Below are positions 11,336 through 25,311 of a stretch of DNA of 27,314 nt, in pieces (the first letter of the stretch is position 1; every line of letters starts with the position of its first letter). Source of the stretch: Candidatus Bathyarchaeum sp. (GTDB lineage Archaea; Thermoproteota; Bathyarchaeia; Bathyarchaeales; Bathyarchaeaceae); contig JAOZIF010000106.1 in the NCBI GenBank assembly GCA_026014495.1, positions 1 to 27,314 of the forward strand. Reading direction: 5' to 3'. The position numbers were made by a program, and so were the translations under genes. The notes beneath the pieces are model-generated. The model was given only the letters and a program-made list of their open reading frames with translations, ran no database searches and was not told the DNA's origin.

Positions 11336-11659
11336 TTGCTGCTGGAATCTCTTTTTGCCTTTCTAATTATCTTAATCCTTGCAACACTACTTTACTTATT
11401 CAGCCGTCTGTTAACCCAAAAATCACCTGACACCGAAGAAAAAAGCGCAATGTACGCCTGTGGAGAAAAAGTCTTCTCAAAAAGACTTCTTGTCAATGTA
11501 ACTCTCTACAAGTACCTCATATTCTTCGTAATCATAGACTCTCCTGCACTTATTCTAGCCTTTGCAGCCTTAGCCCTAGAAATGATTAATCCGTTTAGTT
11601 TACTGATTTATTTGGGCATAATTTTAGCGGCAGATTTGCTGCTTTTGGGAGGATATTAA
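11336..11659 (+). CDS. nuoA: NuoA/FpoA-like membrane subunit of the hydrogenase complex
   Basis: Three hydrophobic segments; K.AMYACGE loop (YECG-type); FFVIID; first gene of the operon. Confidence 0.75.
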   Translation: MLLESLFAFLIILILATLLYLFSRLLTQKSPDTEEKSAMYACGEKVFSKRLLVNVTLYKYLIFFVIIDSPALILAFAALALEMINPFSLLIYLGIILAADLLLLGGY

Positions 11660-11676
11660 AGACGCCCGACCTAGGC

Positions 11677-12090
11677 TTGTTGAAATGGGCTAGAACAAAA
11701 TCGCCTTGGTTGCTTCACTTCAACACAGGAGCATGCAACGGATGCGACATCGAAGTTGTTGCACTGCTCACACCCAGATACGATGTTGAACGTTTCGGCA
11801 TAAAACTGGAGCCCTCGCCCCGTCATGCAGATGTTCTTGTTGTAACTGGGCCTGTGACAAAGCAGTGTGCACCACGGCTCAAGATGATTTATGAGCAGAT
11901 GCCCTCGCCAAAATTTGTCATAGCCGTAGGTGCCTGTGCATGTTCTGGCGGAATATTTCAGGACTGCTACAACATAAGTGGGCGACTCGACGAGATAATT
12001 CCGGTAGACGTATATATCCCGGGTTGTCCTCCAAAACCCGAAGCAATAGTTCAGGGCGTTGCTAAACTGCTTGGAAAACTGAAGGGATAA
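11677..12090 (+). CDS. nuoB: Group 4 [NiFe]-hydrogenase small subunit (NuoB/MbhJ/HycG family)
   Basis: ACNGCDIE (hydrogenase-type CxxC rather than the tandem CC of complex I), SPRHAD, GACACSGG, PGCPPKPE. Confidence 0.92.
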   Translation: MLKWARTKSPWLLHFNTGACNGCDIEVVALLTPRYDVERFGIKLEPSPRHADVLVVTGPVTKQCAPRLKMIYEQMPSPKFVIAVGACACSGGIFQDCYNISGRLDEIIPVDVYIPGCPPKPEAIVQGVAKLLGKLKG

Positions 12091-12093
12091 ACC

Positions 12094-13767
12094 ATGGAAA
12101 AGTTTGAAACTGCTGTAGATGTTCTCAAGAACAATTTGGCTGATGCTATTGTTGAGCTAAAGGTTCCTAGGCCCAGAAAAGCCTACATTCTTCTTAAGTC
12201 TGAACGCCACAGAGATGCAGTCTCTTTGCTTCTGAAGCATGTTGAAGAGTCGATGCTTTCGACAATAAGTGGCGTTGACTTGGGAACTGAGATAGAGTTA
12301 AACTACCACATGGTTTGTGGGGGAACAGTAACCCTCAAAAATCGGGTTCCACGAGAAAAACCTGTTACAAAAACAATTACTGATATTTTGCCTGGAGCAA
12401 ATTTGTATGAGCGCGAAGTATTCGACCTTTTAGGCGTCGTTTTTGAGGGGCATCCTAACCTAGAACGGTTGCTACTTCCTGACGGCTGGCCTAAAGGAAA
12501 CTATCCTCTCAGAAGAGATTGGACGCCTCCACTTATTCAAGAAAACGATTCGGGTTCTGAGGAAGATTCGCAGAATAATTCAGAGGAAGATGATGTTGGG
12601 TCACTAGTTAGTGTTGTTGTGGGTCCTCAGCATCCAGTTTTGCATGAACCTGAGCGATTCAATTTCACTGTTGATGGCGAGACTGTTGTAGATGTTAAGC
12701 CCCGTCTTGGCTATGTTCATAGGGGTATTGAAAAAGCGGCTGAGCGTATGATGTACTTCCAAGACGTGTTTTTGGTGGAACGTATATGTGGTATCTGTAA
12801 TGCTGCTCACACAACCGTTTTCTGTCAAGCTGTTGAGGACATCGGAAACATTGAAACTCCGCCTCGGGCTTTATACTTACGTACCATTGTGCATGAGTTG
12901 AACAGGGTTCACAGTCACCTTTTGCTGCTTGGTGTTGGTGGTCACCTGCTTGGGTTTGAAGCACTATTCCAGCATGTTTGGCGTGACCGTGAGCCAGTGA
13001 TGGATATTATTGAGCAAATTACTGGCAACCGTTTGATGAGCGGCTTTAACACAATCGGCGGAGTAAGGCGCGATATTAATCCCAATACCGTCGAGAAAGC
13101 CCTAAAGACTGTCAAGGCAGTTAGGAAACGGGCTGTTTTCTACAAGAACGTGTTCGAGGAAGATGCAACATTGAGGCTCCGAACCGAAGGTGTTGGCGTG
13201 TTAAGCAAAGAAGTTGCTCTGAAGCTATGTGTTGTTGGTCCTGTTTTGAGAGGGTCAGGTGTTGCTTCGGATGTCAGAAAAGATGATCCTTACGCAGCGT
13301 ATGCTGAAATTCCTTTCAATGTACCCTGTTATGATGAGTGTGACACGTGGGCTCGGCTGATGGTCAGGGTTGACGAGGTGGTGGAAAGCTTGAACATCCT
13401 AGATTATGCGTTTAACAACCTTCCGGGTGGACGTTTGCGGGTTAGGGTTCAACGTAAAATACCTGAGGGCGAGGCTGTTAGTCGTGTTGAAGCTCCTCGA
13501 GGAGAACTTATACATTACGTTAAAAGTGATGGAACTGCGTATCCTTACAGGGTTAAGGTTAGGGCTCCAACTTTGGCGAACCTTCTGGCTTTTCCAGACG
13601 CTATTCGTGGCGGCTACATCGCTGACATTCCCTCTGTGATGGGAAGCTTAGACCCCTGCTTTTCTTGCACTGATCGTATGGCATTCGTTGATACTGCAAA
13701 TGGTCAAAAATGGCGCTGGAGCCTTGACGACGTAAACAGTCACAAAAACCGGAGAGTGCTACTCTAA
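12094..13767 (+). CDS. Group 4 [NiFe]-hydrogenase large subunit, fused NuoC+NuoD (HycE-like architecture), with C-terminal extension
   Basis: NuoC motif ERE.FDLLGV.FEGHPNLERLLLP..W...YPLR; GPQHP; GY.HRG.EK; L1 RICGIC (12781-12798); L2 DPCFSCTDR (13651-13677) plus a 29-aa tail. Confidence 0.93.
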   Translation: MEKFETAVDVLKNNLADAIVELKVPRPRKAYILLKSERHRDAVSLLLKHVEESMLSTISGVDLGTEIELNYHMVCGGTVTLKNRVPREKPVTKTITDILPGANLYEREVFDLLGVVFEGHPNLERLLLPDGWPKGNYPLRRDWTPPLIQENDSGSEEDSQNNSEEDDVGSLVSVVVGPQHPVLHEPERFNFTVDGETVVDVKPRLGYVHRGIEKAAERMMYFQDVFLVERICGICNAAHTTVFCQAVEDIGNIETPPRALYLRTIVHELNRVHSHLLLLGVGGHLLGFEALFQHVWRDREPVMDIIEQITGNRLMSGFNTIGGVRRDINPNTVEKALKTVKAVRKRAVFYKNVFEEDATLRLRTEGVGVLSKEVALKLCVVGPVLRGSGVASDVRKDDPYAAYAEIPFNVPCYDECDTWARLMVRVDEVVESLNILDYAFNNLPGGRLRVRVQRKIPEGEAVSRVEAPRGELIHYVKSDGTAYPYRVKVRAPTLANLLAFPDAIRGGYIADIPSVMGSLDPCFSCTDRMAFVDTANGQKWRWSLDDVNSHKNRRVLL

Positions 13768-13768
13768 G

Positions 13769-14764
13769 ATGGCCATTGACCTCATTTTTTTTGTGAGGAC
13801 ACTGGTATTTCCTGGATTCCTTTTCCTTTTAGTGTTGGTGCTCTTTTTTGACTGGTTTGAAAGAAAGGTTGCGGCTCGTTTCCAGAACCGCATGGGACCA
13901 TCGTATGCTGGTCCATTTGGTATCCTTCAGCCAATAGCTGATTACATTAAGCTGTTTTCGAAGGAAGACATTACTCCAAAGCAAACCAACAAGTTTTTGT
14001 TTGTTGTGGCTCCAATTCTTGCGTTTTCGCTCTTTGTTTTTGCCCTTTTTTACATCCCGATTGACGGCTCGAACGTGATTTTGGATTCAAGTTTCGAGGG
14101 CGATTTGCTTTTGGTTTTGCTTTTGGTGACTCTTGCTAATTTTGGAATTTTTCTTTCTGGTTGGGCTTCTTTGAATCCTTACAGTGGAATTGGTGCAACC
14201 CGAATTTTGACGCAGTTTCTTGGTTATGACATTCCTCTTATCCTTTTGGCGATTGGTCCTGCTTTTCTTGCAAAAAGTTTGTCCATTGTGAGTATTGCAT
14301 CTAGCCAAGTTACTGTTCCATTTATTTTGTTGATTCCTTGGTCTTGTGTCTTGTTTATTCTTGTTTTGCAGGCTGAGCTAGAAAAAGACCCCTTTGATAT
14401 TCCTCATGCAGAAACCGAGATTGTAGGCGGTTACGAAACAGAGTACAGCGGAAGAAAACTGGCTTTCATAAAGCTTTCAGAAGATTTCCAGTTCTTGATT
14501 GGTGCTTCTCTTGTCACTGTCCTGTTTTTGGGCGGCTTTCATGGGCCTGTTTTTATTGGACCTGCTGAATTTTGGTATGTTTTCTGGTTTATTGTTAAAA
14601 CTCTTGGTGTGGTGTTCATTTTAGAGTATGTGGGCAACGTGTCTGCCCGATTGCGTATAGACCAAGTTGTTCATGGCAACTGGAAACTGTTGATTCCTTT
14701 GTCTATTTTGTCTCTTGCTCTTACAATACTTGTTGAACCCTTGTTGCGGTCGGTGATTGGTTAG
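13769..14764 (+). CDS. nuoH: NuoH/MbhM-like membrane subunit
   Basis: ERKV.AR.Q.R.GP...G..QP.AD..KL..KE; AELEKDPFDIPHAETEIVGGYETEYSG; RLRIDQ. Confidence 0.93.
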   Translation: MAIDLIFFVRTLVFPGFLFLLVLVLFFDWFERKVAARFQNRMGPSYAGPFGILQPIADYIKLFSKEDITPKQTNKFLFVVAPILAFSLFVFALFYIPIDGSNVILDSSFEGDLLLVLLLVTLANFGIFLSGWASLNPYSGIGATRILTQFLGYDIPLILLAIGPAFLAKSLSIVSIASSQVTVPFILLIPWSCVLFILVLQAELEKDPFDIPHAETEIVGGYETEYSGRKLAFIKLSEDFQFLIGASLVTVLFLGGFHGPVFIGPAEFWYVFWFIVKTLGVVFILEYVGNVSARLRIDQVVHGNWKLLIPLSILSLALTILVEPLLRSVIG

Positions 14765-14776
14765 GAGGATAATTGT

Positions 14777-15178
14777 GTGACAAAAAAACGACGACGATTA
14801 CCCGCGCTGATAAAAGACATGGGCTCCTGTCTATTCAAAAAGCCCTTTACTCAAGAGTATCCTTTTGTTTCTGTGCAGGCTCCTGAAGGTTACCGCGGCA
14901 GACAAACTTTTGATCCTGAAAAATGCATCAGTTGTGGTTTATGTGAGCGAGACTGCCCTGCTAAGGCTATAGAACTTGTGGAAGTTTCTGGGAAACGGAT
15001 GCCCTATTTTTACCTTGACCGATGCATATTCTGTTATCAATGCGCGGAAGGTTGTCCAAGAAATGCAATACAGCTTTCTACAAATTTTGAGATGTCAACT
15101 ACAGAAAAAGACGAGTTGCTTGTAAAGGCAGAAGAATTTATTTCTAAACAAAACATCAGTTCGGACGAGGGACAATAA
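14777..15178 (+). CDS. nuoI: NuoI/MbhN-like 2x[4Fe-4S] subunit
   Basis: T..YP...YRG; CISCGLCERDCP and CIFCYQCAEGCP. Confidence 0.92.
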   Translation: MTKKRRRLPALIKDMGSCLFKKPFTQEYPFVSVQAPEGYRGRQTFDPEKCISCGLCERDCPAKAIELVEVSGKRMPYFYLDRCIFCYQCAEGCPRNAIQLSTNFEMSTTEKDELLVKAEEFISKQNISSDEGQ

Positions 15179-15179
15179 A

Positions 15180-15644
15180 ATGTGGCTTGAAACAGTTTTG
15201 GCTATTGGAATGGTGACTTCTGCGGTCTTCGCGATATATCTGAAAGAAACAGTTTCTTCGGTTTTGTCCCTGAGCACCATGATGATTTTGCTTGCTGTGC
15301 TTTACTTTAATTTGAATGCTCCGTTTGCTGCCATTTTTCAGTTGGCGTTAGGCACTGGAACTGCCGCAATTTTCCTTCTTGCTGGTGATTCGTTAACTAA
15401 GAAAAGTGACTTGAAAACATCCAGCAAAACCAAGTTTGTTGGGCTAATTGTTTCTGCTGTTTTATGTGTTCCTGTTATTGTTGGGACTGTGGCAACTGCG
15501 TCTTTGAGTGCTTCATTGGATTTGTCGATTTCTAGTGCAATATGGGAGTTTAGGGCAATCGATGTTCTTGCTCAAGGCTTAGTTGTTTTGACTGCTGCAC
15601 TTGGCGTAGTTATCCTTCTAAAAGAGGAACGGAGGCGCAAGTAA
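15180..15644 (+). CDS. nuoJ: NuoJ-like subunit (MbhD+MbhE-like)
   Basis: L.APFAAIFQL..G.G N-terminal half; WEFRAIDVLAQG C-terminal motif; positioned between I and K. Confidence 0.75.
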   Translation: MWLETVLAIGMVTSAVFAIYLKETVSSVLSLSTMMILLAVLYFNLNAPFAAIFQLALGTGTAAIFLLAGDSLTKKSDLKTSSKTKFVGLIVSAVLCVPVIVGTVATASLSASLDLSISSAIWEFRAIDVLAQGLVVLTAALGVVILLKEERRRK

Positions 15645-15980
15645 ATGGATTACATTATACTATCTGTTACTATATTGGCGATTGGAATAGTTGGATTGGT
15701 TACAAAACATGACTTGATCAAAATGCTGATCGCCATAGAAATGATTACTGCCGCAGCAACAATGAATTTTGTTGTTTTTGGTTCCTTAATGGAAAACTCT
15801 TTAGGTCAAGCCTTCTCGATTCTCGCTTTATCTGTTGACGCTTGCGTAACTGCTGTTGCTCTTGCACTTGCTATTGCAATCTACAAAAAACTAAACATCC
15901 GAGATGTTCGCGATCTATCGGAAATAACAGAGACCTCATCAGACAAAGAAACCCAAACCGTGGAGGAAGACCAAAAGTGA
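15645..15980 (+). CDS. nuoK: NuoK/MrpC-like subunit
   Basis: IGIVGL...LIKMLIAIEM; GQAF.ILA; three TM helices. Confidence 0.88.
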   Translation: MDYIILSVTILAIGIVGLVTKHDLIKMLIAIEMITAAATMNFVVFGSLMENSLGQAFSILALSVDACVTAVALALAIAIYKKLNIRDVRDLSEITETSSDKETQTVEEDQK

Positions 15981-18073
15981 TTCCGGTTGAGTACGCAGCG
16001 TGGTTATGCTGGGCGATTCCTTTTGCAGGTTCATTATTTGTACCTTTAGTTGCTAAGGTTCGTCGTAGAAGCGTTGGATGGTACGCGGTAGCCGTCACTT
16101 TTCTTGCGGTTGCATGTACACTCTCTTTGATTTCAGGTATGCTTGGTGGTCATGCTGATGCGCATGTGTATTCTATACCTTGGATGCCTGCTCTTAACAT
16201 TGATCTTAGTGTTCTTGTTGACCCGTTAAGCGTTATGATGGCAAACATTGCAGCCTGTATTGGCTTGCTAATCATGATTTACTCAGTAAACTATATGAAA
16301 AAAGAAAAGGCAACCCCTAGATTCTTTTTCTTTATGCTTCTTTTCATCGGGGGAATGCTTGGTTTAGTTATGGCCAACAATCTTTTGCAGATGTACTTTT
16401 TCTGGGAAACCGTTGGACTTTGTTCATACTCCCTTATCGGATTCTGGTACAGCCGAGATGACGCAGCAAAAGCAGGAATGAAAGCATTTATTGTAACAAG
16501 AGTTGGCGACATTTTCCTTTTACTTGGAATATTGTTGTTATATGTGAACACTGGCACCTTCAATTTTATGGAAATAAAGGAACTCATAGCCGCTGGGGCT
16601 GTTTCGGTTCCAATGTTAACTATATCAATTTTGATGCTGATTGGAGCTATCGGCAAATCTGCCCAAGTTCCGTTGCATGTATGGCTTCCAAATGCCATGG
16701 AAGGGCCATCACCTGTCAGTGCCCTTATTCACGGTGCAACAATGGTAAAAGCAGGAATCTATCTTGTGGCAAGAATCTACATCCTATTCTCGATAGTGCA
16801 ACCATGGTTAACAACAATCACCTATGTTGGCGGAATCACAGCTTTTCTTGCCGCAACCATGGCGTTGACCAGCTCAGACCTGAAACGTGTTCTCGCATTC
16901 TCAACAATAAGCCAGCTGGGTATGATAATGTCCGCGCTGGGAATAGGAACTGAGCTTGGTTGGTTCGCTAGCCAATTTCATGTAATCAGTCATGCACTCT
17001 TCAAGTCGCTTTTGTTTTTGTGTGCTGGAGTCATTATGCATGTTACTCACACACTTGACCTAAAGCAGCTTGGCGGTTTAAGAAAGGCAATGCCAATAAC
17101 TTTCATAGTGAGTGTTATTGGAGCGTTTTCTCTTGCTGGTATTCCGCCATTTAGTGGATTTTGGAGCAAAGACACCATATTTGAGGCTATAATATTAGCC
17201 AACAACGTTCCCTTGTTTATTTTGATATTTGGAACCTCTGTGCTAACAGCAATCTATAGTATACGCTGGATTTGTTCAGTTTTCCTTGGAGAAAGATCCG
17301 CGTTTCTGGCAGACCATCACATACACGACCCCAGCCCCATAATCTATGTGCCCCTTATCCTGTTGGCTGCTGCTTCATGCATTACAGGTTTCTTCAAAAC
17401 CCCACTAGAGCATTATCTTGGAGTACATGCTGAAGCTTCAATGTCTGGTGTACTTTTGGCAAGTGCAACTTCTGCTGTAATTCTTGCGATTGCAGTTCCT
17501 GTAGCCTATTATCTTTACTACAAAAAACGTGCAACTTCACTGTTTTTCGCAAGAAATCTTTTAAACAATCCACTTTATTTGTTAATATCTAATGGCTACT
17601 ATTTCGACGCCGTTTACAATAAAATCTTGAATGGAGTCATGGGTTTGGCACAATTCACCTGTAGAGTAATAGAACGCTCTGGAGTGCAGCAGTTCCCATA
17701 TGTTGTAGCATGTGGGGCTTCCAAGCTAGCCCAAGGTACACTAAACTATATCGAATCGTTTCTTGACCGATTCGTTTACGTCATAGCTGGTGGAGCTGTG
17801 ATTACTGCCCACAAAACCCATGTGCACCTTGACGCTTTTCTTGACCGCTTCTGCTACATTCTAGCCGGTGGAACCGTAGAGACTGCCCGAGTAACCCACG
17901 AATATATTGATTCATTCTTGGATAGAATGGTCTATCTTTTTGCAGGAAAAACTGTTGAGCATGGGCAGAAAATCAAGAAAATGCACCGAGGACCCCTGCC
18001 AGACTTTGTTTTGGCAGCCGCGCTCGGATTCTTCCTAATTGTAATATTACTATTATTAACTGCTTTGAGGTAA
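15977..18073 (+). CDS. nuoL: NuoL/MrpA-like antiporter-like subunit, about 698 aa from GTG 15977
   Basis: FFWE, GKSAQVPLHVWLP.AMEGP.PVSALIH.ATMV.AG, HALFK, GFWSKD; the GTG start overlaps the K stop (GTGA). The provided 15842 start is in frame but gives a non-homologous prefix. Confidence 0.92.
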   Translation: MIPVEYAAWLCWAIPFAGSLFVPLVAKVRRRSVGWYAVAVTFLAVACTLSLISGMLGGHADAHVYSIPWMPALNIDLSVLVDPLSVMMANIAACIGLLIMIYSVNYMKKEKATPRFFFFMLLFIGGMLGLVMANNLLQMYFFWETVGLCSYSLIGFWYSRDDAAKAGMKAFIVTRVGDIFLLLGILLLYVNTGTFNFMEIKELIAAGAVSVPMLTISILMLIGAIGKSAQVPLHVWLPNAMEGPSPVSALIHGATMVKAGIYLVARIYILFSIVQPWLTTITYVGGITAFLAATMALTSSDLKRVLAFSTISQLGMIMSALGIGTELGWFASQFHVISHALFKSLLFLCAGVIMHVTHTLDLKQLGGLRKAMPITFIVSVIGAFSLAGIPPFSGFWSKDTIFEAIILANNVPLFILIFGTSVLTAIYSIRWICSVFLGERSAFLADHHIHDPSPIIYVPLILLAAASCITGFFKTPLEHYLGVHAEASMSGVLLASATSAVILAIAVPVAYYLYYKKRATSLFFARNLLNNPLYLLISNGYYFDAVYNKILNGVMGLAQFTCRVIERSGVQQFPYVVACGASKLAQGTLNYIESFLDRFVYVIAGGAVITAHKTHVHLDAFLDRFCYILAGGTVETARVTHEYIDSFLDRMVYLFAGKTVEHGQKIKKMHRGPLPDFVLAAALGFFLIVILLLLTALR
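17750..17983 (+). repeat. Three tandem 78-bp (26-aa) repeats in the lateral-helix region of the L subunit, plus a degenerate 27-aa copy at 17669-17749
   Basis: FLDR Phe codons at 17759, 17837 and 17915 (78-nt period); consensus [IL][ED][SA]FLDR[FM].Y..AG..V. Confidence 0.9.
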
Positions 18074-18080
18074 AACAAAA

Positions 18081-19598
18081 ATGGAAACCCTATTAATTGC
18101 TTTGATGTTGCCTGCTCTGGCTATTCCAGTAGTGTATGGCATTGGAAAAAAATCTGCGAAAACTGCTGCTTTGATTCTTACATTAATTGTTTTGGTTAGC
18201 CTGTCTCTTTTGCTAACTTTGGTACCCACGGTTCTTAGTGAGGGACAATACATTGAATCGTATTATTGGATACCTACTTTAGGTTCGGCTTTCACGCTTT
18301 TTGTTGACGGAATAAGCCTGTCGTTGGCTATTGCCACATTAATACTTGTTTCAGCAACAACAGTATATTCAATAAACTATATGGAAGAGAAAAGTTCACT
18401 TCCAGAATATTTTGCGTTAATGAGCTTACTAACCATCGGGTTAATTGGAGTTTTCATAACCTCCAATCTTTTGCTCTTTTATTTCTGTTGGGAACTCATG
18501 CTTGTTCCAACATACTTTATCATAGGCGGCTGGGGATACAAGGACTCCTTCAAAACAGCCTTCAAATTTTTCATATTCACTCACGCTGGAGCAATCTTTG
18601 TTCTCTTAGGCATCGGCGCCATCTACATGCTCACCGGCACCCTTGACATATTCGAAGCCCAAGCCATTCTAGCCACCACAGTAGACCAAAGTATCTTACC
18701 TTGGGTGCTGATTTCGTTTGTTGCAGGATTTGCTGTAAAAATGGCTATTGTTCCACTTCATATGTGGCTTCCAGACGCGCACGGTGAATCACCTGCACCA
18801 ATGTCTGCACTCCTTAGTGGTGTAATAATTGGGGCTGGAGGATACGCTGTTTTGAGGATAGCTCTTGGAACCGTATACACTGCAATGGTGCCCGCAGGGA
18901 ACGAATTCTTGTTAGTGTTAAGCTTTTTCGGCGTATTATCCGCATTTTACGGGTCATTTTTGGCGTTAGCAGAAACCGACATCAAACGAATAATTGCTTA
19001 CTCTAGTATAAGCCACATGGGCTACGTTCTGTTTGCACTTTCCCTGTTTCCATCTTCCGAAGGAATCACTGGAGCAGTGCTCCATCTGGTTAACCATACC
19101 GCAAGCAAGGGGCTTCTCTTCTTGACCGCAGGCGCAGTCATGCACCAAACTGGCTTAAGAAACATAAATGACATGGGTGGTTTAGCTTCAAAAATGCCCC
19201 TAACCGCGATAGCAACTGCTATTGCAGCCTTTAGCATAGGTGGAATTCCACCGTTTGCATGCTTCATAAGTGAGTTCCACATTTTCGTTGGAGCTGTCAC
19301 CGCTGCTGGCGCAGATAGTTCATATTATTTGCCTACGATTTTGATGCTTATTGCAACTGTTTTCAGTCTCGCTTATGTCCTCAGATACTTCTGGAAAGTT
19401 TTCTTAGGGTCTCCCAAGGCAAAAACTGACGTTGAACCTGTTACAACCGATGAAACGGGTGAGCAAAAAACTAAGAATAATGACCCGTCAATGTTCATGC
19501 TTATTGCAATGCTTGCTTTGGCAGCGTTTGTTGTGATATTGGGAATTTATCCTGGAGTTTTCATTGATTTAATTCATGCTGTTACATCAATAATATGA
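18081..19598 (+). CDS. nuoM: NuoM/MrpD-like antiporter-like subunit
   Basis: FCWELM, FAVKMAIVPLHMWLPDAH.E.P, KRIIAYSSISHMG, NH..SKGLLF, ISEF. Confidence 0.92.
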   Translation: METLLIALMLPALAIPVVYGIGKKSAKTAALILTLIVLVSLSLLLTLVPTVLSEGQYIESYYWIPTLGSAFTLFVDGISLSLAIATLILVSATTVYSINYMEEKSSLPEYFALMSLLTIGLIGVFITSNLLLFYFCWELMLVPTYFIIGGWGYKDSFKTAFKFFIFTHAGAIFVLLGIGAIYMLTGTLDIFEAQAILATTVDQSILPWVLISFVAGFAVKMAIVPLHMWLPDAHGESPAPMSALLSGVIIGAGGYAVLRIALGTVYTAMVPAGNEFLLVLSFFGVLSAFYGSFLALAETDIKRIIAYSSISHMGYVLFALSLFPSSEGITGAVLHLVNHTASKGLLFLTAGAVMHQTGLRNINDMGGLASKMPLTAIATAIAAFSIGGIPPFACFISEFHIFVGAVTAAGADSSYYLPTILMLIATVFSLAYVLRYFWKVFLGSPKAKTDVEPVTTDETGEQKTKNNDPSMFMLIAMLALAAFVVILGIYPGVFIDLIHAVTSII

Positions 19599-19613
19599 CG
19601 AGGCGTACATTAA

Positions 19614-21095
19614 ATGAATATTATCGACATTCTATTACCAACAATAGTCTTCACGGTTTGCTCTTTACTAACCGTTCCACTTCTACGACTTGTACGAAAA
19701 ACCAAGTTTAATCCTCAACATTTCATGGTTGCTTGGGTACTTCTCACCTTTTCTGCAGCTGCGGCTGGAGTTTTTCGTATAGCAACAGAGTATTTTGGGC
19801 AGGCTGAGTCGTTTCTTCAGATTTCTTCTGTAGACACGCTTTTGGAGTCCATGTCAACGGTATTTCTTGTAGACACAGTTTCGGTTTACATGGTGATAGC
19901 CTACCTGATTGTAGGTTCAATCACGTGCCTGTATGGTGTTTTGCATGTTAGTTCACAGGAAAATCTGTCTGAAAGGTATTACGCGTTGATGCTTATGGTA
20001 ACTGGCACTGTGATAGCTGCTACTTTTTCAGGAGACTTGCTTACGCTTTTCATCTTTTGGGAGGCAACAGCGGCTGGTTCTTGTTTTCTTGTGGCTTACA
20101 AAAAGTCTCGTGAATCGCTTGAGTCTGCTTTGAAGTATCTGGTCATGGTCATTATAGCTTCTGGTTTTATAATCTATGGTTTATCCTTGATTTTTGGTCT
20201 TACGGGCTCGCTTAACTTCTGGACAGTTAGAGACGTTTTGTTAACTACTGCTAACCCTGAGCTTTTGGTGGTGGCTTTTGCTTTTATTATTGCAGGATAT
20301 GCTATCGAAACTGCTATTGTTCCGTTTCACATGTGGATGCCAGATGCTTACACTGCTGCTCCTGATTCTGCTTCAGCTTTCTTATCTTCAATAGTTGACC
20401 AAGGCAGCTACTATGTCTTGTTGCGTGTTTTGCTGTTTATTTTAACACCAACTGCGGTTGTTGATTGGCGATTTACTGTGGCAATATTTTCTGCGATTAC
20501 TATGACCGCGGGGAACTTGTTTGCGTTGGCACAGCAAAATGTTAAGCGCATGATTTCATACGTTTGTATTGCAGATATTGGCTATAACTTGATAGCTATT
20601 ACCAGCATCACTTCTATTGGTCTTATGGGTAACCTGTTCTTTTTCTTTGTTGCAGCCATGGAAACTGCTCTTGCCTTCATGGTTATTGGGGTTTTCAGAA
20701 AAATGGGATTGGAAACGTTAGATGATTTATCTGGTATGGGACGTAAAATGCCTTTGACCAGCGTGGCTTTTGTTTGTGCAGCTTTGTCGTTTTCTGGTGT
20801 GCCCCTGTTCGCAGGGTTCATCGCAAAGTACATGGTGTTTACTTCAGTTTTGCAGTCAAGCGTTGCGTGGTTAGCTGTGGTAGGCGTTCTAAACTCGGTT
20901 CTGCAAACATCTTACTTCCTAAGAGTGATACATTACTTCTATGCCAAACCCGCGAAAAGTGACGTACCATTCAAGGAGCCAAAAAAGTTGCTGGTGCCAA
21001 TTTATTGTTTGGTTGTCATAATTGTTGTTCTTGGATTATATCCTGATTTGGCGCTAGATTTGCTCTCTGCTGCTGCGGCATTGTTGCCTACGTAA
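19614..21095 (+). CDS. nuoN: NuoN/MrpD-like antiporter-like subunit with a divergent charged axis
   Basis: FIFWE, ESLESALKY, VPFHMWMPDAY..AP, KRMISY, S..GVP..AGF.AK; last membrane gene in the operon. Confidence 0.85.
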   Translation: MNIIDILLPTIVFTVCSLLTVPLLRLVRKTKFNPQHFMVAWVLLTFSAAAAGVFRIATEYFGQAESFLQISSVDTLLESMSTVFLVDTVSVYMVIAYLIVGSITCLYGVLHVSSQENLSERYYALMLMVTGTVIAATFSGDLLTLFIFWEATAAGSCFLVAYKKSRESLESALKYLVMVIIASGFIIYGLSLIFGLTGSLNFWTVRDVLLTTANPELLVVAFAFIIAGYAIETAIVPFHMWMPDAYTAAPDSASAFLSSIVDQGSYYVLLRVLLFILTPTAVVDWRFTVAIFSAITMTAGNLFALAQQNVKRMISYVCIADIGYNLIAITSITSIGLMGNLFFFFVAAMETALAFMVIGVFRKMGLETLDDLSGMGRKMPLTSVAFVCAALSFSGVPLFAGFIAKYMVFTSVLQSSVAWLAVVGVLNSVLQTSYFLRVIHYFYAKPAKSDVPFKEPKKLLVPIYCLVVIIVVLGLYPDLALDLLSAAAALLPT

Positions 21096-21143
21096 CCCAA
21101 AATTTTAACTTGCTAGAATGATACAAGATTGTAAGGGAATTGT

Positions 21144-22643
21144 TTGGCAGCAAAAAAAGGCAACCTAATAGCATATAATGATTTGGAAAGTAAAATCATT
21201 AACTCTGGATTTTGTACCTTCTGTGGAGCATGTGAAGCGGCATGTCCTGTTCATGCGATAAAAATAGAGGGCTACAAAGTTGAGCACTCTGATTGCTCTA
21301 AACACATTGATTCCTGTCCGATATGTTATGAGATTTGTCCCCATTCTGATGAACTTGTTTCTGAAAGCCTAAAGTTTGTTTCAGACTCGCCTACAAAACG
21401 CGAAGGTTTAGGGTATTACAGAAGAATTCTGCTTGCACAAGCTGCAGACCCAGAGCTTAGAAAGCTTGGGCATGGTGGTGCTATTGTTACTACGCTTTTA
21501 ACAAACGCCATAGACACTGGGATGATAGATAGTGCGATTGTTTCTCAGGCGGAAACCAATATTCCAATTAAACCTAAAGCCCTTGTTGGTGTGGTTCCAG
21601 ATGACGTGTTTTCTGCTGTTGGGAGCAAATTCTTTCCATCATCTGTAGCTCGAGCTTATGGAAGTGCAGTTTATGAGTATGGAAAAGGCGATATTGCGTT
21701 CGTTGGGGTTCCTTGTCATGTGTTGGCTCTTCGTAAGCTTGAGGCTTGGGAACATAAAATCACTGGAAACCTAAAGGTGATAATTGGGCTCTTTTGTTTC
21801 TGGACACTTTCTTTTGGGCACCTGCTTGATTACCTGTCAAAAACTTACAACATTAACCCCGACGAGATAAAACGGCTTGATATAGTAAAGGAGTTGATAG
21901 TTCAAACCGACAAAGGTACAATAACCGTTCCATTGTCTGAAGTTAAGCCGCACATTTTAACTAGCTGTGAAACCTGCACTGATTTTACTTCAGAGTTAGC
22001 TGACATTTCTGTTGGAAGTGCTTATCCTCTTAAGGAGTGGTCTACAGTGATTATTCGAACAAAGGCTGGAGAGGACTTCTTTTATTCTGCAGTAGAGGCG
22101 GGGGTGATAAACACGGGCGTAATAGAGCTTGAGCCAGACGCTTTTGCGCATGTGATTGAGACTGCAGTGAATAAACGAAAAACTGCACTAAAAGAGCTAA
22201 ACGAAATGAAGGAAGCATATGTTCCTGTTCCAGTTAAGCCTTTACAGGAAATTTCTATTCTCTCCAAGTTTAAAGTGAAGGATGTTATGTCCAAGAAACT
22301 CAAAACAGTGTCTCCAGATTTTACTGTTAGTCAACTCTTGGATTTTATGGCTAAGCATCATCACACGGGGTATCCTGTTGTTGATGAAAGCGGAGACTTC
22401 ATGGGACTCGTCGCGTTGGAGGATGTTGTGAAGGTTGAGAAAGAGAAAAGAGATGAAGTTCTTATTCGTGACATCATTCAAAAGAATCCTGTTGTTATTT
22501 TTCCTGAAGAGCTTGCTTTGGATGCCTTCAAAAAGATGAGGGTTCATGATGCGGTTCGTATTGCGGTTGTTGACAACGCTAATCCAAAAAAAATAATTGG
22601 TATGCTCACTAAAACTGATTTGCGACACATTCTAAGTGACTAG
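21144..22643 (+). CDS. FpoF/FrhB-family (coenzyme F420 hydrogenase beta subunit-like) flavoprotein with N-terminal 2x[4Fe-4S] domain, fused to a C-terminal CBS pair
   Basis: CTFCGACEAACP and CPICYEICP; GGAIVT, GSKF, VGVPCH, IGLFC, CETCTDFTSELADISVG, WSTVIIRT..G; CBS pair from about 22269 (VKDVMS...YPVVD...G.V...D; I.....V...AVVD...GMLTKTDL). Confidence 0.9.
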   Translation: MAAKKGNLIAYNDLESKIINSGFCTFCGACEAACPVHAIKIEGYKVEHSDCSKHIDSCPICYEICPHSDELVSESLKFVSDSPTKREGLGYYRRILLAQAADPELRKLGHGGAIVTTLLTNAIDTGMIDSAIVSQAETNIPIKPKALVGVVPDDVFSAVGSKFFPSSVARAYGSAVYEYGKGDIAFVGVPCHVLALRKLEAWEHKITGNLKVIIGLFCFWTLSFGHLLDYLSKTYNINPDEIKRLDIVKELIVQTDKGTITVPLSEVKPHILTSCETCTDFTSELADISVGSAYPLKEWSTVIIRTKAGEDFFYSAVEAGVINTGVIELEPDAFAHVIETAVNKRKTALKELNEMKEAYVPVPVKPLQEISILSKFKVKDVMSKKLKTVSPDFTVSQLLDFMAKHHHTGYPVVDESGDFMGLVALEDVVKVEKEKRDEVLIRDIIQKNPVVIFPEELALDAFKKMRVHDAVRIAVVDNANPKKIIGMLTKTDLRHILSD

Positions 22644-22718: not shown

Positions 22719-23600
22719 GTGAGATTAATGAGCAATAAGCAACTTTTTAAGAAGATTCTTGTTCCTGTGGATGGTTCACACTCTTGTCTTCACGCTAAAA
22801 TGCTTGCGGCTTCTATCGCAAAAAAGTTCAAATCAAAAGTAACTGTGGTTCACGTTGCTTCTCATGAGTTTATGCATCCTGAACTGAAAGCACAGTATCA
22901 GTTGCCCCATTCAATTTTGCATAAGGTTGACGAGGCATATTTGCAGGCGGGCAAAAAAATCATCAGAAACGCCGAAGAAATGTTCAGAGAAGCTGGAATA
23001 ACTGTTGATTCTAAGCTAGTTACACACGAAGACCCTGCTGAATTTTTGCTTGAGTTAATAAAAAGCGAGAAATACTGTTTGGTTGTTATAGGAAATCGTG
23101 CTGAAAGTCAATCTGAGCGCTACTCTTTGGGAAGCGTTACCGAAAAAGTTGCAAGGCATTCTGAGTGTCCTGTTCTTATAGTCAAACAAAAACCAAAAGT
23201 TGAGAAGATTCTCACCGCTGTTGACGGCTCTAAATATGCAAACAAAGCACTTGAATATGCAGTTGAATTAACTAAAAGCTACAGCGCAAACTTGGCTCTA
23301 TTGCACGTTGAGGAAGACAAACTTGTTCGCATTGGCGGACCACAAGTTATGGATTGTCTTGGAACTGTTGGTGAATGTATCCTAAAAGATGCATCAACTA
23401 AAGTTCAAGGCGTTAAATTTGACAAGATGCTGGAATATGGTAGCCCTGCAGAAATAATAATCAAAGTTGCAAAAAAGGCAGATGTTGACATTATCGTTGT
23501 AGGAAGCAGAGGCTTAAGCAGTGTAAGAAGATACCTGCTTGGCAGCGTCAGCGACGACATAAGCATGCATGCAAGAAGTTCAGTGCTAATTGTCCGATAA
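22719..23600 (+). CDS. Tandem-domain universal stress protein
   Basis: Two USP domains (KKILVPVDGS; KILTAVDGS); GSRG...LLGSVS in the second. A BRE/TATA-like GAAAGTTAAAATA at about 22683-22695 suggests start at ATG 22728. Confidence 0.92.
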   Translation: MRLMSNKQLFKKILVPVDGSHSCLHAKMLAASIAKKFKSKVTVVHVASHEFMHPELKAQYQLPHSILHKVDEAYLQAGKKIIRNAEEMFREAGITVDSKLVTHEDPAEFLLELIKSEKYCLVVIGNRAESQSERYSLGSVTEKVARHSECPVLIVKQKPKVEKILTAVDGSKYANKALEYAVELTKSYSANLALLHVEEDKLVRIGGPQVMDCLGTVGECILKDASTKVQGVKFDKMLEYGSPAEIIIKVAKKADVDIIVVGSRGLSSVRRYLLGSVSDDISMHARSSVLIVR

Positions 23601-23639
23601 ACTGTTCATTTGAGAAAATATTCTCCAGCAACGCTACAG

Positions 23640-24026
23640 CTACTTTTTTACTACAAGTACGTTGCAGTTTGCTTTGGAAACTACCTGTTTTGATACGCTG
23701 CCTAACAAGAAAGCTGCAGCATTACCCAGTCCTCTGCTGCCAACTACTATTAAGTCAATTTTCTCGTTTTCTGCAGTGTCAACCAACGCTCGGGACGGAT
23801 TGGAGCCAAGAATAGGCTCTAAACTAGACTCGATTTTTTCTTCATCTAAAAGCTGTTTTACTTTTAGCTGAGTTTTGGCTGCTTCGTCTGCTTCTCCTCG
23901 TTTGTAGATTGTAATAACTTTTATGTGACCTGAAAACTTTTTTGCGATGCTAATTGCTTCCATAAGTGCCCATGTGGAATTGTCTGAGCCGTCAACTCCT
24001 ACTAAAATTTTCATTCCTGTTTTCAT
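23640..24026 (-). CDS. Single-domain universal stress protein
   Basis: KILVGVDGS; IVVGSRGLGNAAAFLLGSVS; CNVLVVK. Confidence 0.93.
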   Translation of the reverse strand: MKTGMKILVGVDGSDNSTWALMEAISIAKKFSGHIKVITIYKRGEADEAAKTQLKVKQLLDEEKIESSLEPILGSNPSRALVDTAENEKIDLIVVGSRGLGNAAAFLLGSVSKQVVSKANCNVLVVKK

Positions 24027-24111
24027 TTATTTAACCTCGCGAATGTTTCCCCTTTTTTATTTTAGAATTGTTACTATTCATTATTTATTCGCCCAAGTTT
24101 TAATGCTTTCT

Positions 24112-25311
24112 CTATGCTTTCGCATCCATAAGTCCTGGATTATTTTTTATGCCTCTGGCAAGAATTGGCGGAAGGATAAGCGTAGTTATTAGACTCATCG
24201 ATACTAGGGCAGAGAAAATCTCTGGAGAAATTAAGCCATACTGTATTGCAATCAATGCAATCACCAATTCTGCTGCGCCTCTTGAGTTCATTGCCCAGCC
24301 TACATAGTAGAGTTGTTTCCAGCTTAGGCTAGAGACTGGTTTAACAATTAATGTTCCTATAATCTTTCCAACAGTTGCAATTGTTACTGTTATTGCTATC
24401 ATGGGTATGTTGGCAAGAAATGTGTCGATGTCAAATGTTAATCCAACGTTTACGAAAAAGAATGGAACAACAAAGCCCATTGCAATAAGTTTGATTACAT
24501 TTAGCAACTGTTTTCGGTTCTTTTTGCTGATTTTTTTCATTGATGCCTGCAGTAGAAAACCTCCGAGAATAGCACCAATCAAGTAGCCCACGTTCAAGGA
24601 TTCGGAAAGAGCTGCAAGAACCAGAATGAAAATGAGCACTATAGAAAACAGTTCTGTTTCTTCACCTGTTTTTTTGTCTAGGTTCTGTAGAACTTTTGAA
24701 ATTATCTTGAACGCGATGAACGCAATTACAAGGAAGACAATCATTTCTACGGGAATCATTGCTAAATCAAGTAAGCTTCCGCCCTTTGCCAAGACTACTA
24801 CTAGCGCCAAAAATAGTACTTCAAAGATGTCGTCTATTGCGCCTGCGGCAAGCATTATTGCTCCCAGTCGGGTGTTTAAGACGTTAAAGTCCATGAGCAC
24901 CTTAACGTTTGTTCCTTCGGAGGTAACCATCAGTGCACCCCCAAAAATGACGCCTGCCATAAAGCCTTGTTCAGGGAAAAGTAACATGATAAAAATGAAG
25001 CCCAGTGCAAATGGAATTAGCGCAGAGCAAATTGATATGAGAATTGAATCTCTTGATGTCTCCTTTATTTTTTCGATTTCAATCTCTAATCCTGCCAAAA
25101 AGAGAAGCAGTAGTATTCCAAGTGTAGCCAAAAAATCGATTATTACAAGCGTTGATCCTTCGCCGAAGAATAGTTCCTTTAATGCTGGGATTCCAAACAT
25201 TAGGCCTGCGAGTATTTGTCCAATAACTGATGGCAAGCCAATTTTTTTGAACATCTCACCGAGTATGAATGCGGCAATCAGAATGATGGGTACAATTGCT
25301 AATATTTCCAT
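24112..25311 (-). CDS. CPA2-family cation:proton antiporter (NapA-like)
   Basis: G..LLLFLAGLE; VTS; AGAIDD; GAILGG; FVVPFFFV.VG; GK..G; MNSRGA.EL. Confidence 0.9.
   Translation of the reverse strand: MEILAIVPIILIAAFILGEMFKKIGLPSVIGQILAGLMFGIPALKELFFGEGSTLVIIDFLATLGILLLLFLAGLEIEIEKIKETSRDSILISICSALIPFALGFIFIMLLFPEQGFMAGVIFGGALMVTSEGTNVKVLMDFNVLNTRLGAIMLAAGAIDDIFEVLFLALVVVLAKGGSLLDLAMIPVEMIVFLVIAFIAFKIISKVLQNLDKKTGEETELFSIVLIFILVLAALSESLNVGYLIGAILGGFLLQASMKKISKKNRKQLLNVIKLIAMGFVVPFFFVNVGLTFDIDTFLANIPMIAITVTIATVGKIIGTLIVKPVSSLSWKQLYYVGWAMNSRGAAELVIALIAIQYGLISPEIFSALVSMSLITTLILPPILARGIKNNPGLMDAKA

Follow-up and report, generated by a model that had tools for sequence, protein, structure and literature searches.

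Does Hfo, the Fpo-like membrane-bound hydrogenase of the Bathyarchaeia, have an electron-input partner of the F type? The question is raised by a 27,314-nucleotide stretch of Candidatus Bathyarchaeum sp. (assembly GCA_026014495.1, contig JAOZIF010000106.1; hereafter the window), in which a gene for an FrhB-family flavoprotein fused to a pair of CBS domains (FrhB-CBS) follows the hfo operon on the same strand. Bathyarchaeia are among the most abundant archaea of anoxic sediments, and their energy conservation is unresolved. Published models show the Hfo/Fpo-like complex without an F-type input subunit and fed by ferredoxin only. Contrary to those statements, gene content and gene order indicate that the bathyarchaeal complex has a conserved F-type partner. 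New here are the linkage of FrhB-CBS to hfo and, with it, a plug-in reductase of the FrhB type whose probable host complex and regulatory domain are both new.

The operon upstream of FrhB-CBS has the gene set, gene order and L1/L2 motifs published for Hfo, an Fpo-like 11-subunit group-4g [NiFe] hydrogenase of Bathyarchaeia (Loh, Herve and Brune 2021, PMC7886697). Its fused CD subunit carries both [NiFe] ligand motifs, RICGICNAAH (L1) and DPCFSCTDR (L2), and HypD is present in the genome. An earlier interpretation made from the letters of the window alone (the sequence-only reading) had inferred a complex with a Ni-containing CD subunit; the motifs bear this out, but the complex itself had already been described as Hfo in 2021. 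In that description the FpoFO module is stated to be absent and a lone FrhB homologue is regarded as a possible HdrABC partner, with no mention of adjacency to hfo or of a CBS domain; Hfo is proposed to consume a gradient built by ATP hydrolysis (PMC7886697). Bathyarchaeal fpo without fpoFO was also reported by Qi et al. (2021). The Hfo cluster is reported in the B. tardum paper, which mentions neither F420 nor FrhB, and an unlinked "FpoF" is listed without comment for a Bathy-6 genome in a 2024 paper.

The FrhB-CBS open reading frame is uninterrupted, and its TTG start is kept across the genus and agrees with the N-termini of homologues (Table 1). It starts at 21144, 48 nucleotides beyond the nuoN stop that ends at 21095, and this gap is the one given by the sequence-only reading. 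The closest homologues are from Candidatus Bathyarchaeum. The four-domain architecture recurs in >100 clusters at 90% identity, so that FrhB-CBS is neither a chance open reading frame nor an assembly chimera. All Pfam matches were above threshold, in agreement with the 2x[4Fe-4S], FrhB and CBS-pair parts read earlier from the sequence: Fer4 at residues 18-40, with dicluster models extending over 18-67; FrhB_FdhB_N (PF04422) at residues 96-170 (43 bits, gathering score 22); FrhB_FdhB_C (PF04432) at residues 184-327 (125.6 bits, gathering score 23.3); and two consecutive CBS stretches (PF00571) at residues 378-495 (85.6 bits). The earlier estimate of the CBS span, ∼22269-22640, lies close to the Pfam span. 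Among 50 homologues 12 cysteines are invariant or nearly so, namely C24/27/30/34, C51/58/61/65 and C191/218/275/278, a number that suffices for three predicted [4Fe-4S] clusters. The last four, the cluster ligands beside the flavin adenine dinucleotide (FAD), are invariant or ≥90% conserved, and C218 aligns with C134 of FrhB.

To place the fusion in its genomic context, a six-frame search of 401 Bathyarchaeia genomes was carried out, in which the full-length fusion was defined by 44-88% identity and a query coverage of about residues 1-497. It was found in 67 genomes, nearly all of one order. The coordinates of FrhB-CBS and of the hfo CD or D gene were compared, and the two were counted as linked when they lay within 12 kb. 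Linkage was observed in 40 of the 67 carriers; if only carriers with the two genes on one contig are counted, the figure is 40 of 44. In 19 carriers they are on different contigs, several of these assemblies being clearly fragmented, and in four no CD match was found. CD-type genes are present in 63 of the 67 carriers, vs. ∼60% of non-carriers. All linked D subunits keep the L1 and L2 [NiFe] motifs, L2 being judged by direct reading of the C-termini. Synteny across genomes, which the sequence-only reading had put forward as a check, therefore came out strongly in favor of an association.

When the window proteins were mapped onto the fetched loci, three gene orders were obtained (Table 1). In the third, FrhB-CBS immediately follows subunit I, which has the 2x[4Fe-4S], inside the operon of the peripheral arm, the place where an input module would be expected. 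A CBS-less orthologue from a sister genus (g2; 54% identity) also lies close to hfo genes. Since the linkage is kept in three gene orders, FrhB-CBS is very probably a dedicated accessory module of Hfo. A linkage that survives repeated rearrangement is strong evidence, at the level of gene order, of a functional and probably physical partnership. Hfo-type CD is encoded in many genomes that lack FrhB-CBS, and the module is therefore accessory, as FpoF is for Fpo. Between species of the Candidatus Bathyarchaeum genus, in which CofD is largely missing (see below), FrhB-CBS is 81-88% identical, vs. 73-87% for CD; being as conserved as CD, it is functional there.

Table 1. Features of the FrhB-CBS locus in the window, gene orders at linked loci, and F420-related loci elsewhere in the window genome (G000) and in relatives
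Feature	Location	Strand	Remarks
hfo operon A-B-CD-H-I-J-K-L-M-N	11336..21095	+	Fpo-like 11-subunit group-4 [NiFe] hydrogenase; proposed partner
B recognition element (BRE)/TATA-like box AAAATTTTAAC (within CCCAAAATTTTAAC)	21099..21109	+	∼36-40 nucleotides before start codon
Shine-Dalgarno-like AAGGGA	21133..21138	+	5-10 nucleotides before TTG
FrhB-CBS gene	21144..22643	+	499 residues; TTG start
Ferredoxin-like N-terminal domain	21195..21344	+	Residues 18-67; 8 Cys, predicted to bind two [4Fe-4S]
Flavoprotein core, FrhB_N + FrhB_C	21429..22124	+	Residues 96-327; FAD loops; [4Fe-4S] ligands C191/C218/C275/C278
Long linker helix	22134..22214	+	Residues 331-357
CBS pair (Bateman module)	22275..22628	+	Residues 378-495
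Tandem-Usp gene	22719..23600	+	Follows FrhB-CBS throughout the genus
Gene order 1: A-B-CD-H-I-J-K-L-M-N-FrhBCBS	Window, L002, L004, L020, L023		L020 from another family of the class
Gene order 2: FrhBCBS upstream of A	L001, L019, L018		Directly before A in L018
Gene order 3: (A-)B-C-D-H-I-FrhBCBS, divergent J-K-N-L-M	L016, L017, L022, L024, L015		L015 without H
CofD-adjacent FrhB paralogue	G318:C7:26295-28310		
CofD-adjacent FrhB paralogue	G361:C5:208514-211188		
CofD-adjacent FrhB paralogue	G288:C1:789756-792415		
CofD-adjacent FrhB paralogue	G387:C1:3917-6545		
F420-related gene, genome G000	C58:23172-23915		
F420-related gene, genome G000	C113:64747-65718		
F420-related gene, genome G000	C3:7734-8474		

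With NCBIfam models FrhB-CBS scored nearest FrhB (180 and 161 bits), at 160.8 bits against the frhB equivalog, whose cut-off is 331.5. The sequence-only reading had called the protein FpoF-like; as a statement of orthology the label fails, since the scores are far under both FpoF equivalog cut-offs (NF040616, 99.5 bits vs. 475; NF006808, 102.8 bits vs. 444). Ten relatives were scanned with the FpoF and FrhB equivalogs and all stayed under the cut-offs, and no FpoF structure was among the matches in the PDB. FrhB-CBS stands closer to FrhB, and to zeta and FwdI as plug-in F420 reductases, than it does to FpoF, and on sequence grounds it is best described as an analogue of FpoF, not an orthologue. 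Like FrhB-CBS, FpoF and FqoF of the Methanosarcina Fpo and Archaeoglobus Fqo complexes are Fe-S flavoproteins of the FrhB family that have a dicluster domain at the N terminus and a genetic tie to a complex-I-like membrane complex of 11 subunits. In contrast to theirs, the partner of FrhB-CBS keeps a [NiFe] site and not a quinone/phenazine site, and FrhB-CBS has a CBS pair; no FpoO was seen.

Among solved structures the best homologue proved to be 8RIU chain B (phmmer E-value 1.5e-49, query residues 6-371), followed by 8RJA_E (FwdI), FrhB and Fsr, whereas HCAR, a member of the family that does not use F420, scored far lower. All close solved homologues are F420 enzymes. This chain comes from the F420-reducing CO dehydrogenase of Ca. 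Ethanoperedens thermophilum, where it is the zeta subunit: a ferredoxin domain anchors the subunit to its host enzyme, an F420-reductase domain holds a single [4Fe-4S] cluster plus FAD, and an extension at the C terminus (residues 350-370) makes up the homodimer interface (Lemaire, Wegener and Wagner 2024, PMC11493965). The zeta complex and the FwdI-containing Fwd complex both reduce F420 in assays; the residues that contact F420 are not listed (PMC11493965), and in the FrhB cryo-EM paper the F420 pocket was found empty.

The AlphaFold model of FrhB-CBS (pLDDT 82.9, pTM 0.75) superimposed on 8RIU_B in Foldseek with a template-modelling (TM) score of 0.82 and a root-mean-square deviation of 2.7 Å over 356 columns. 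The flavoprotein core matched FrhB with TM scores of 0.87-0.90, its cluster ligands and FAD loops falling at the FrhB positions, and the linker helix (residues 331-357) occupies the position of the zeta C-terminal extension and leads into the CBS pair. At the FAD-loop positions of FrhB (24-QDGG, G73-T77 and I132-F138) the loops are present and conserved, with a clade-specific sequence (HGGA, VGSKF and GLFCFW vs. QDGG, AGTKY and GIYCMENF). Zeta and FwdI share with FrhB-CBS a single-chain plan of 2x[4Fe-4S] ferredoxin domain, FrhB-type reductase and C-terminal helix, and with it the concept of an add-on module by which an enzyme of the ferredoxin type is rewired to a hydride carrier. Their host, however, is CO dehydrogenase or Fwd, whereas that of FrhB-CBS would be a membrane-bound group-4 [NiFe] hydrogenase; FrhB-CBS adds a CBS pair and another flavin-loop signature, and identity is only ∼31%. 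The organisms differ too, as F420 core biosynthesis genes were not found in that of FrhB-CBS, where F420 use is a prediction. FrhB of the group 3a hydrogenase FrhABG (PDB 4OMF, 4CI0 and 9R51) offers a parallel in that it also connects a [NiFe] site to a deazaflavin, as FrhB-CBS would do, but FrhB itself has neither an N-terminal ferredoxin domain nor a CBS pair and works with the soluble FrhA and FrhG.

We propose that FrhB-CBS is an accessory, twelfth component of Hfo, a regulated electron-input module whose carrier would most likely be F420, and we rate the chances of this as about even. The N-terminal 2x[4Fe-4S] domain, by analogy with residues 1-83 of zeta a likely docking and wiring domain, would bind near subunit I and so lengthen the Fe-S wire. 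The FrhB core ([4Fe-4S] and FAD) would couple one-electron Fe-S traffic to hydride transfer with a soluble two-electron carrier; in Frh the flavin switches between one-electron and hydride chemistry (FrhB cryo-EM paper). Between FAD and the [NiFe] site the electrons would use as stepping stones, in this order, the FrhB cluster, the N-terminal pair of clusters, those of subunit I and that of subunit B. F420, if it is the carrier, would be scavenged, as the genus is apparently unable to make it. The outcome would be an F420H2:H+ (or H2:F420) oxidoreductase that is bound to the membrane and coupled to an ion gradient, and because the F420 and H+/H2 potentials are close, its direction would be set by the ion gradient together with the partial pressure of H2. 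At the C terminus the CBS pair, with an adenosine nucleotide bound, would tune or gate the module by energy state and may also dimerize it. Gating by energy charge would be reasonable should the complex, as Loh et al. proposed for Hfo, spend a gradient generated through ATP hydrolysis.

As to the carrier that FrhB-CBS serves, the evidence points both ways. In the window genome (G000; F420-related loci in Table 1) curated cut-offs are exceeded by Mer (444 bits), Fno (172.6 bits) and CofE (283 bits), so that F420 is probably in use, and FrhB-CBS is the sole FrhB-family gene of this genome. Several observations weigh against F420. CofD, CofG and CofH were not found in the window genome (93% complete) or in the closed genome G090 of the same genus (97% complete); CofD is present in one of 21 genus genomes, and it was not found in 29 of the 67 carriers, some of which are 97-100% complete. 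Mer is encoded by only 16 of the 67 carriers. In relatives it is another FrhB paralogue (32-35% identity) that adjoins CofD. The clade has its own FAD-loop signature, SHGGA, AVGSKFFPS and GLFCFW where canonical sequences have QDGG, AGTKYT and C-x-E: the pyrophosphate loop is HGGA and not QDGG, and the flavin-ring loop GIYCMENF of FrhB is GLFCF(W/G)T, without the canonical C-x-E. Clade members score 164-215 bits with the FrhB model, vs. 250-295 for canonical relatives, and they stand apart from canonical FrhB sequences in a tree that is indicative only, being a plain FastTree without displayed support values. A further point, against the proposed mechanism as a whole, is that the gap between the F420 and H2 potentials, ∼70 mV, is narrow for a complex in which three subunits are antiporter-like.

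The observations against F420 would be accommodated by a module that is attached to Hfo and works with NAD(P)H, free flavin or an unnamed cofactor, or that is a mere Fe-S/flavin relay or ferredoxin-docking cap; the FrhB family does include members that do not use F420, e.g. HCAR. We consider this unlikely, though not by far, and would give about a quarter of the weight to another hydride carrier or a pure relay role. The nearest solved structures and the retention of Mer, Fno and CofE speak for F420, and no NAD(P)-binding motif or domain was detected in Pfam and NCBIfam scans of FrhB-CBS. An Hfo-type core should also take ferredoxin without an adaptor, as do Mbh, Ech and the FpoF-less Fpo of Methanothrix. 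That F420 is the carrier of FrhB-CBS, scavenged in the genus, is in our judgment an evenly balanced proposition on the gene content. A more distant alternative detaches the protein from Hfo altogether: FrhB-CBS could be an independent soluble enzyme, an F420:ferredoxin-type oxidoreductase or a partner of another complex such as HdrABC, as proposed for the lone FrhB by Loh et al. (PMC7886697), and lie near hfo through co-regulation only. This would fit its own conserved promoter-like box, which also speaks against an obligate partnership, and the spacer of 50-165 nucleotides that always precedes it, whereas genes inside the hfo operon abut. It would fit as well the four closed or long-contig genomes (G229, G395, G193 and G347) in which FrhB-CBS and CD are 0.5-0.9 Mb apart, the 19 genomes with the two genes on different contigs and the four carriers without a CD match. 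The many Hfo-bearing genomes without FrhB-CBS tell against an obligate partnership. Against an independent enzyme, the linkage has outlasted at least three rearrangements, one of them an insertion right behind subunit I in the peripheral-arm operon. A search of the unlinked loci for HdrABC or another partner revealed no Hdr gene and no recurrent neighbor (the genes found encode aconitase, proteasome, NUBPL-type ATPase, histidine kinase, ClpB, cytochrome c assembly, COX1 and NosD), and such a partner was rejected. In Methanosarcina, fpoF is unlinked from the fpo operon, and an unlinked location is no argument against a subunit role. An independent enzyme is, on this evidence, improbable.

Whatever the carrier, the CBS pair sets FrhB-CBS apart. 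The ribose motif G-h-h-[ST]-x-x-[DN] is present in both CBS domains (GLVALED and GMLTKTD) and conserved across the clade, as are HH-x-GYPV and an Arg before the second strand (41-91% identity), which would suit nucleotide phosphates. In the AlphaFold model this part folds like MJ0922, MJ0100 and CBSX (Foldseek TM scores of 0.8-0.9), which are CBS pairs with adenosyl ligands. The ligand is thus most likely an adenosine nucleotide, as far as motifs and fold can tell. A CBS-less relative (P0129, 40% identity; L033:8499-10107, JGI 3300031604) has a stand-alone 123-residue CBS-pair gene divergently adjacent; given this split form, the association of CBS and FrhB appears to be functional. Bateman modules with conserved adenosyl-binding motifs are likewise attached to the catalytic or transport domains of CBS-pyrophosphatase, IMPDH, MgtE/CorC, OpuCA and AMPK gamma. 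We know of no CBS pair on an FrhB-family flavoprotein, a hydrogenase or a complex-I input module. No paper in the searchable literature contains both "FrhB" and "CBS domain", in line with the earlier remark that the fusion is not known from any characterized enzyme.

The CBS pair could instead be structural and not a sensor, replacing the zeta-type C-terminal extension and dimerizing the flavoprotein or two complexes, and this would be compatible with any substrate. The homodimer interface of 8RIU (residues 350-370) has its counterpart in the long helix at the same place in the model, directly before the CBS pair. CBS pairs commonly dimerize. Some clade members without the CBS pair are still linked to hfo (genus g2), so that the domain is dispensable for the core job. 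Conservation of both ribose motifs, and of basic and His residues suited to phosphates, at 41-91% identity argues for a sensor, and a stand-alone CBS gene beside a CBS-less homologue looks more like a regulatory subunit. A purely structural role is therefore possible but doubtful.

The regulated electron-input module proposed here would alter which electron carriers can reach the membrane complex. It would offer a candidate route to re-oxidize (or produce) a hydride carrier such as F420H2 in methoxy-group and C1 metabolism, and would extend the plug-in F420-reductase principle to a membrane hydrogenase. Its CBS pair would, to our knowledge, be the first nucleotide sensor found on such a module and points to energy-charge control of a respiratory-type complex. 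The widest claim, that Bathyarchaeia have an unrecognized class of energy-converting hydrogenase, a complex-I-shaped [NiFe] enzyme with an adenylate-gated F420 input, working as a membrane-bound, ion-coupled F420H2:H+ oxidoreductase and relying on scavenged F420 in Bathyarchaeum, is tentative and on balance unlikely. An adenylate-gated F420 input, if true, would overturn the "no F subunit" statements for bathyarchaeal Fpo-like complexes.

The set of F420 genes deserves separate comment. The sequence-only reading had named a lack of F420 biosynthesis in the genome as a point that would tell against it. The genome gives a divided answer: CofD, CofG and CofH were not found, whereas CofE, Mer and Fno are present. 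This combination suggests F420 auxotrophy and salvage, or another role of CofE. F420-dependent enzymes are kept while core biosynthesis genes are missing, which leads to a hypothesis of cofactor auxotrophy that bears on cultivation; scavenging of F420, if true, would tie such an auxotrophy to the difficulty of obtaining pure cultures. Three gene markers were considered for co-occurrence with FrhB-CBS. CofE was rejected as a discriminating marker, since it is near-universal in the class (363 of 401 genomes; 66 of the 67 carriers). Mer was rejected as well, and its presence in 16 carriers implies that the module is not tied to the methyl branch. CofD, found in 38 of the 67 carriers and in 73 of 161 genomes of the order, showed no clear association. 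CofE often lies beside Mer in relatives (e.g. G365, G394, G346 and G371). In the single-contig genome G395, the CofD gene falls into four frame-shifted pieces and contains one TAG (G395:C1:498831-499739), and this is either a decaying gene or the result of indel errors in a long-read assembly. The second FrhB paralogue (∼350 residues, without CBS) directly adjoins CofD in several genomes and is absent from the window genome; it may be the true F420-linked FrhB of those lineages.

Upstream of FrhB-CBS, CCCAAAATTTTAAC is found at a fixed 36-40 nucleotides before the TTG in nine genus members, and the distance from box to start holds even where an insert of ∼60 nucleotides parts the box from the nuoN stop. 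A GGGA/GGGGA Shine-Dalgarno sequence is kept in most genus members. The conserved box fits an archaeal BRE/TATA promoter and suggests that FrhB-CBS has a promoter of its own. The sequence-only reading had entered such a promoter as a caveat, at ∼21098-21108; the box is real and conserved at a fixed distance from the start codon, but its position was one base off (21099-21109). With a conserved promoter-like element of its own, the module can probably be set to a level independent of that of the core operon, and read-through transcription from hfo into FrhB-CBS may occur.

The tandem-Usp gene that follows may belong to the same regulatory neighborhood as FrhB-CBS, and a TATA-like TTAAAATAT lies ∼35 nucleotides before its likely ATG at 22728. 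Over window positions 22719-25311 the order is tandem-Usp (+), single-Usp (-) and Na+/H+ exchanger (-), and this order is genus-wide (L002, L004 and L005).

The hfo operon varies among the loci compared (L019:14609-17736; L018:10816-12659; L015-L017, L021 and L022). C and D are separate genes in several families; in the window they form one gene, with an acidic linker rich in Ser/Glu/Asp between the two parts (∼residues 150-170 of CD). Subunit M is duplicated in the hfo operon of G381, and in G346 no B gene lies between A and CD.

Three loci away from hfo have neighbors of their own. At the unlinked FrhB-CBS locus of G229, one of the next genes (L036:8357-9265) is for a NUBPL/Mrp-type Fe-S transfer P-loop ATPase; this family assembles complex I clusters in eukaryotes, and the proximity in G229 may be coincidental. 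The CBS-less relative at L033 is surrounded by multihaem cytochromes c, an NrfD-type membrane protein and cytochrome c maturation genes, with no hfo. In the closed genome G347 (L038, G347:C1:942800-956400) a COX1-type haem-copper oxidase subunit I gene and a cytochrome c assembly gene lie a few kb from the unlinked FrhB-CBS, and COX1 is unexpected for a lineage regarded as strictly anaerobic.

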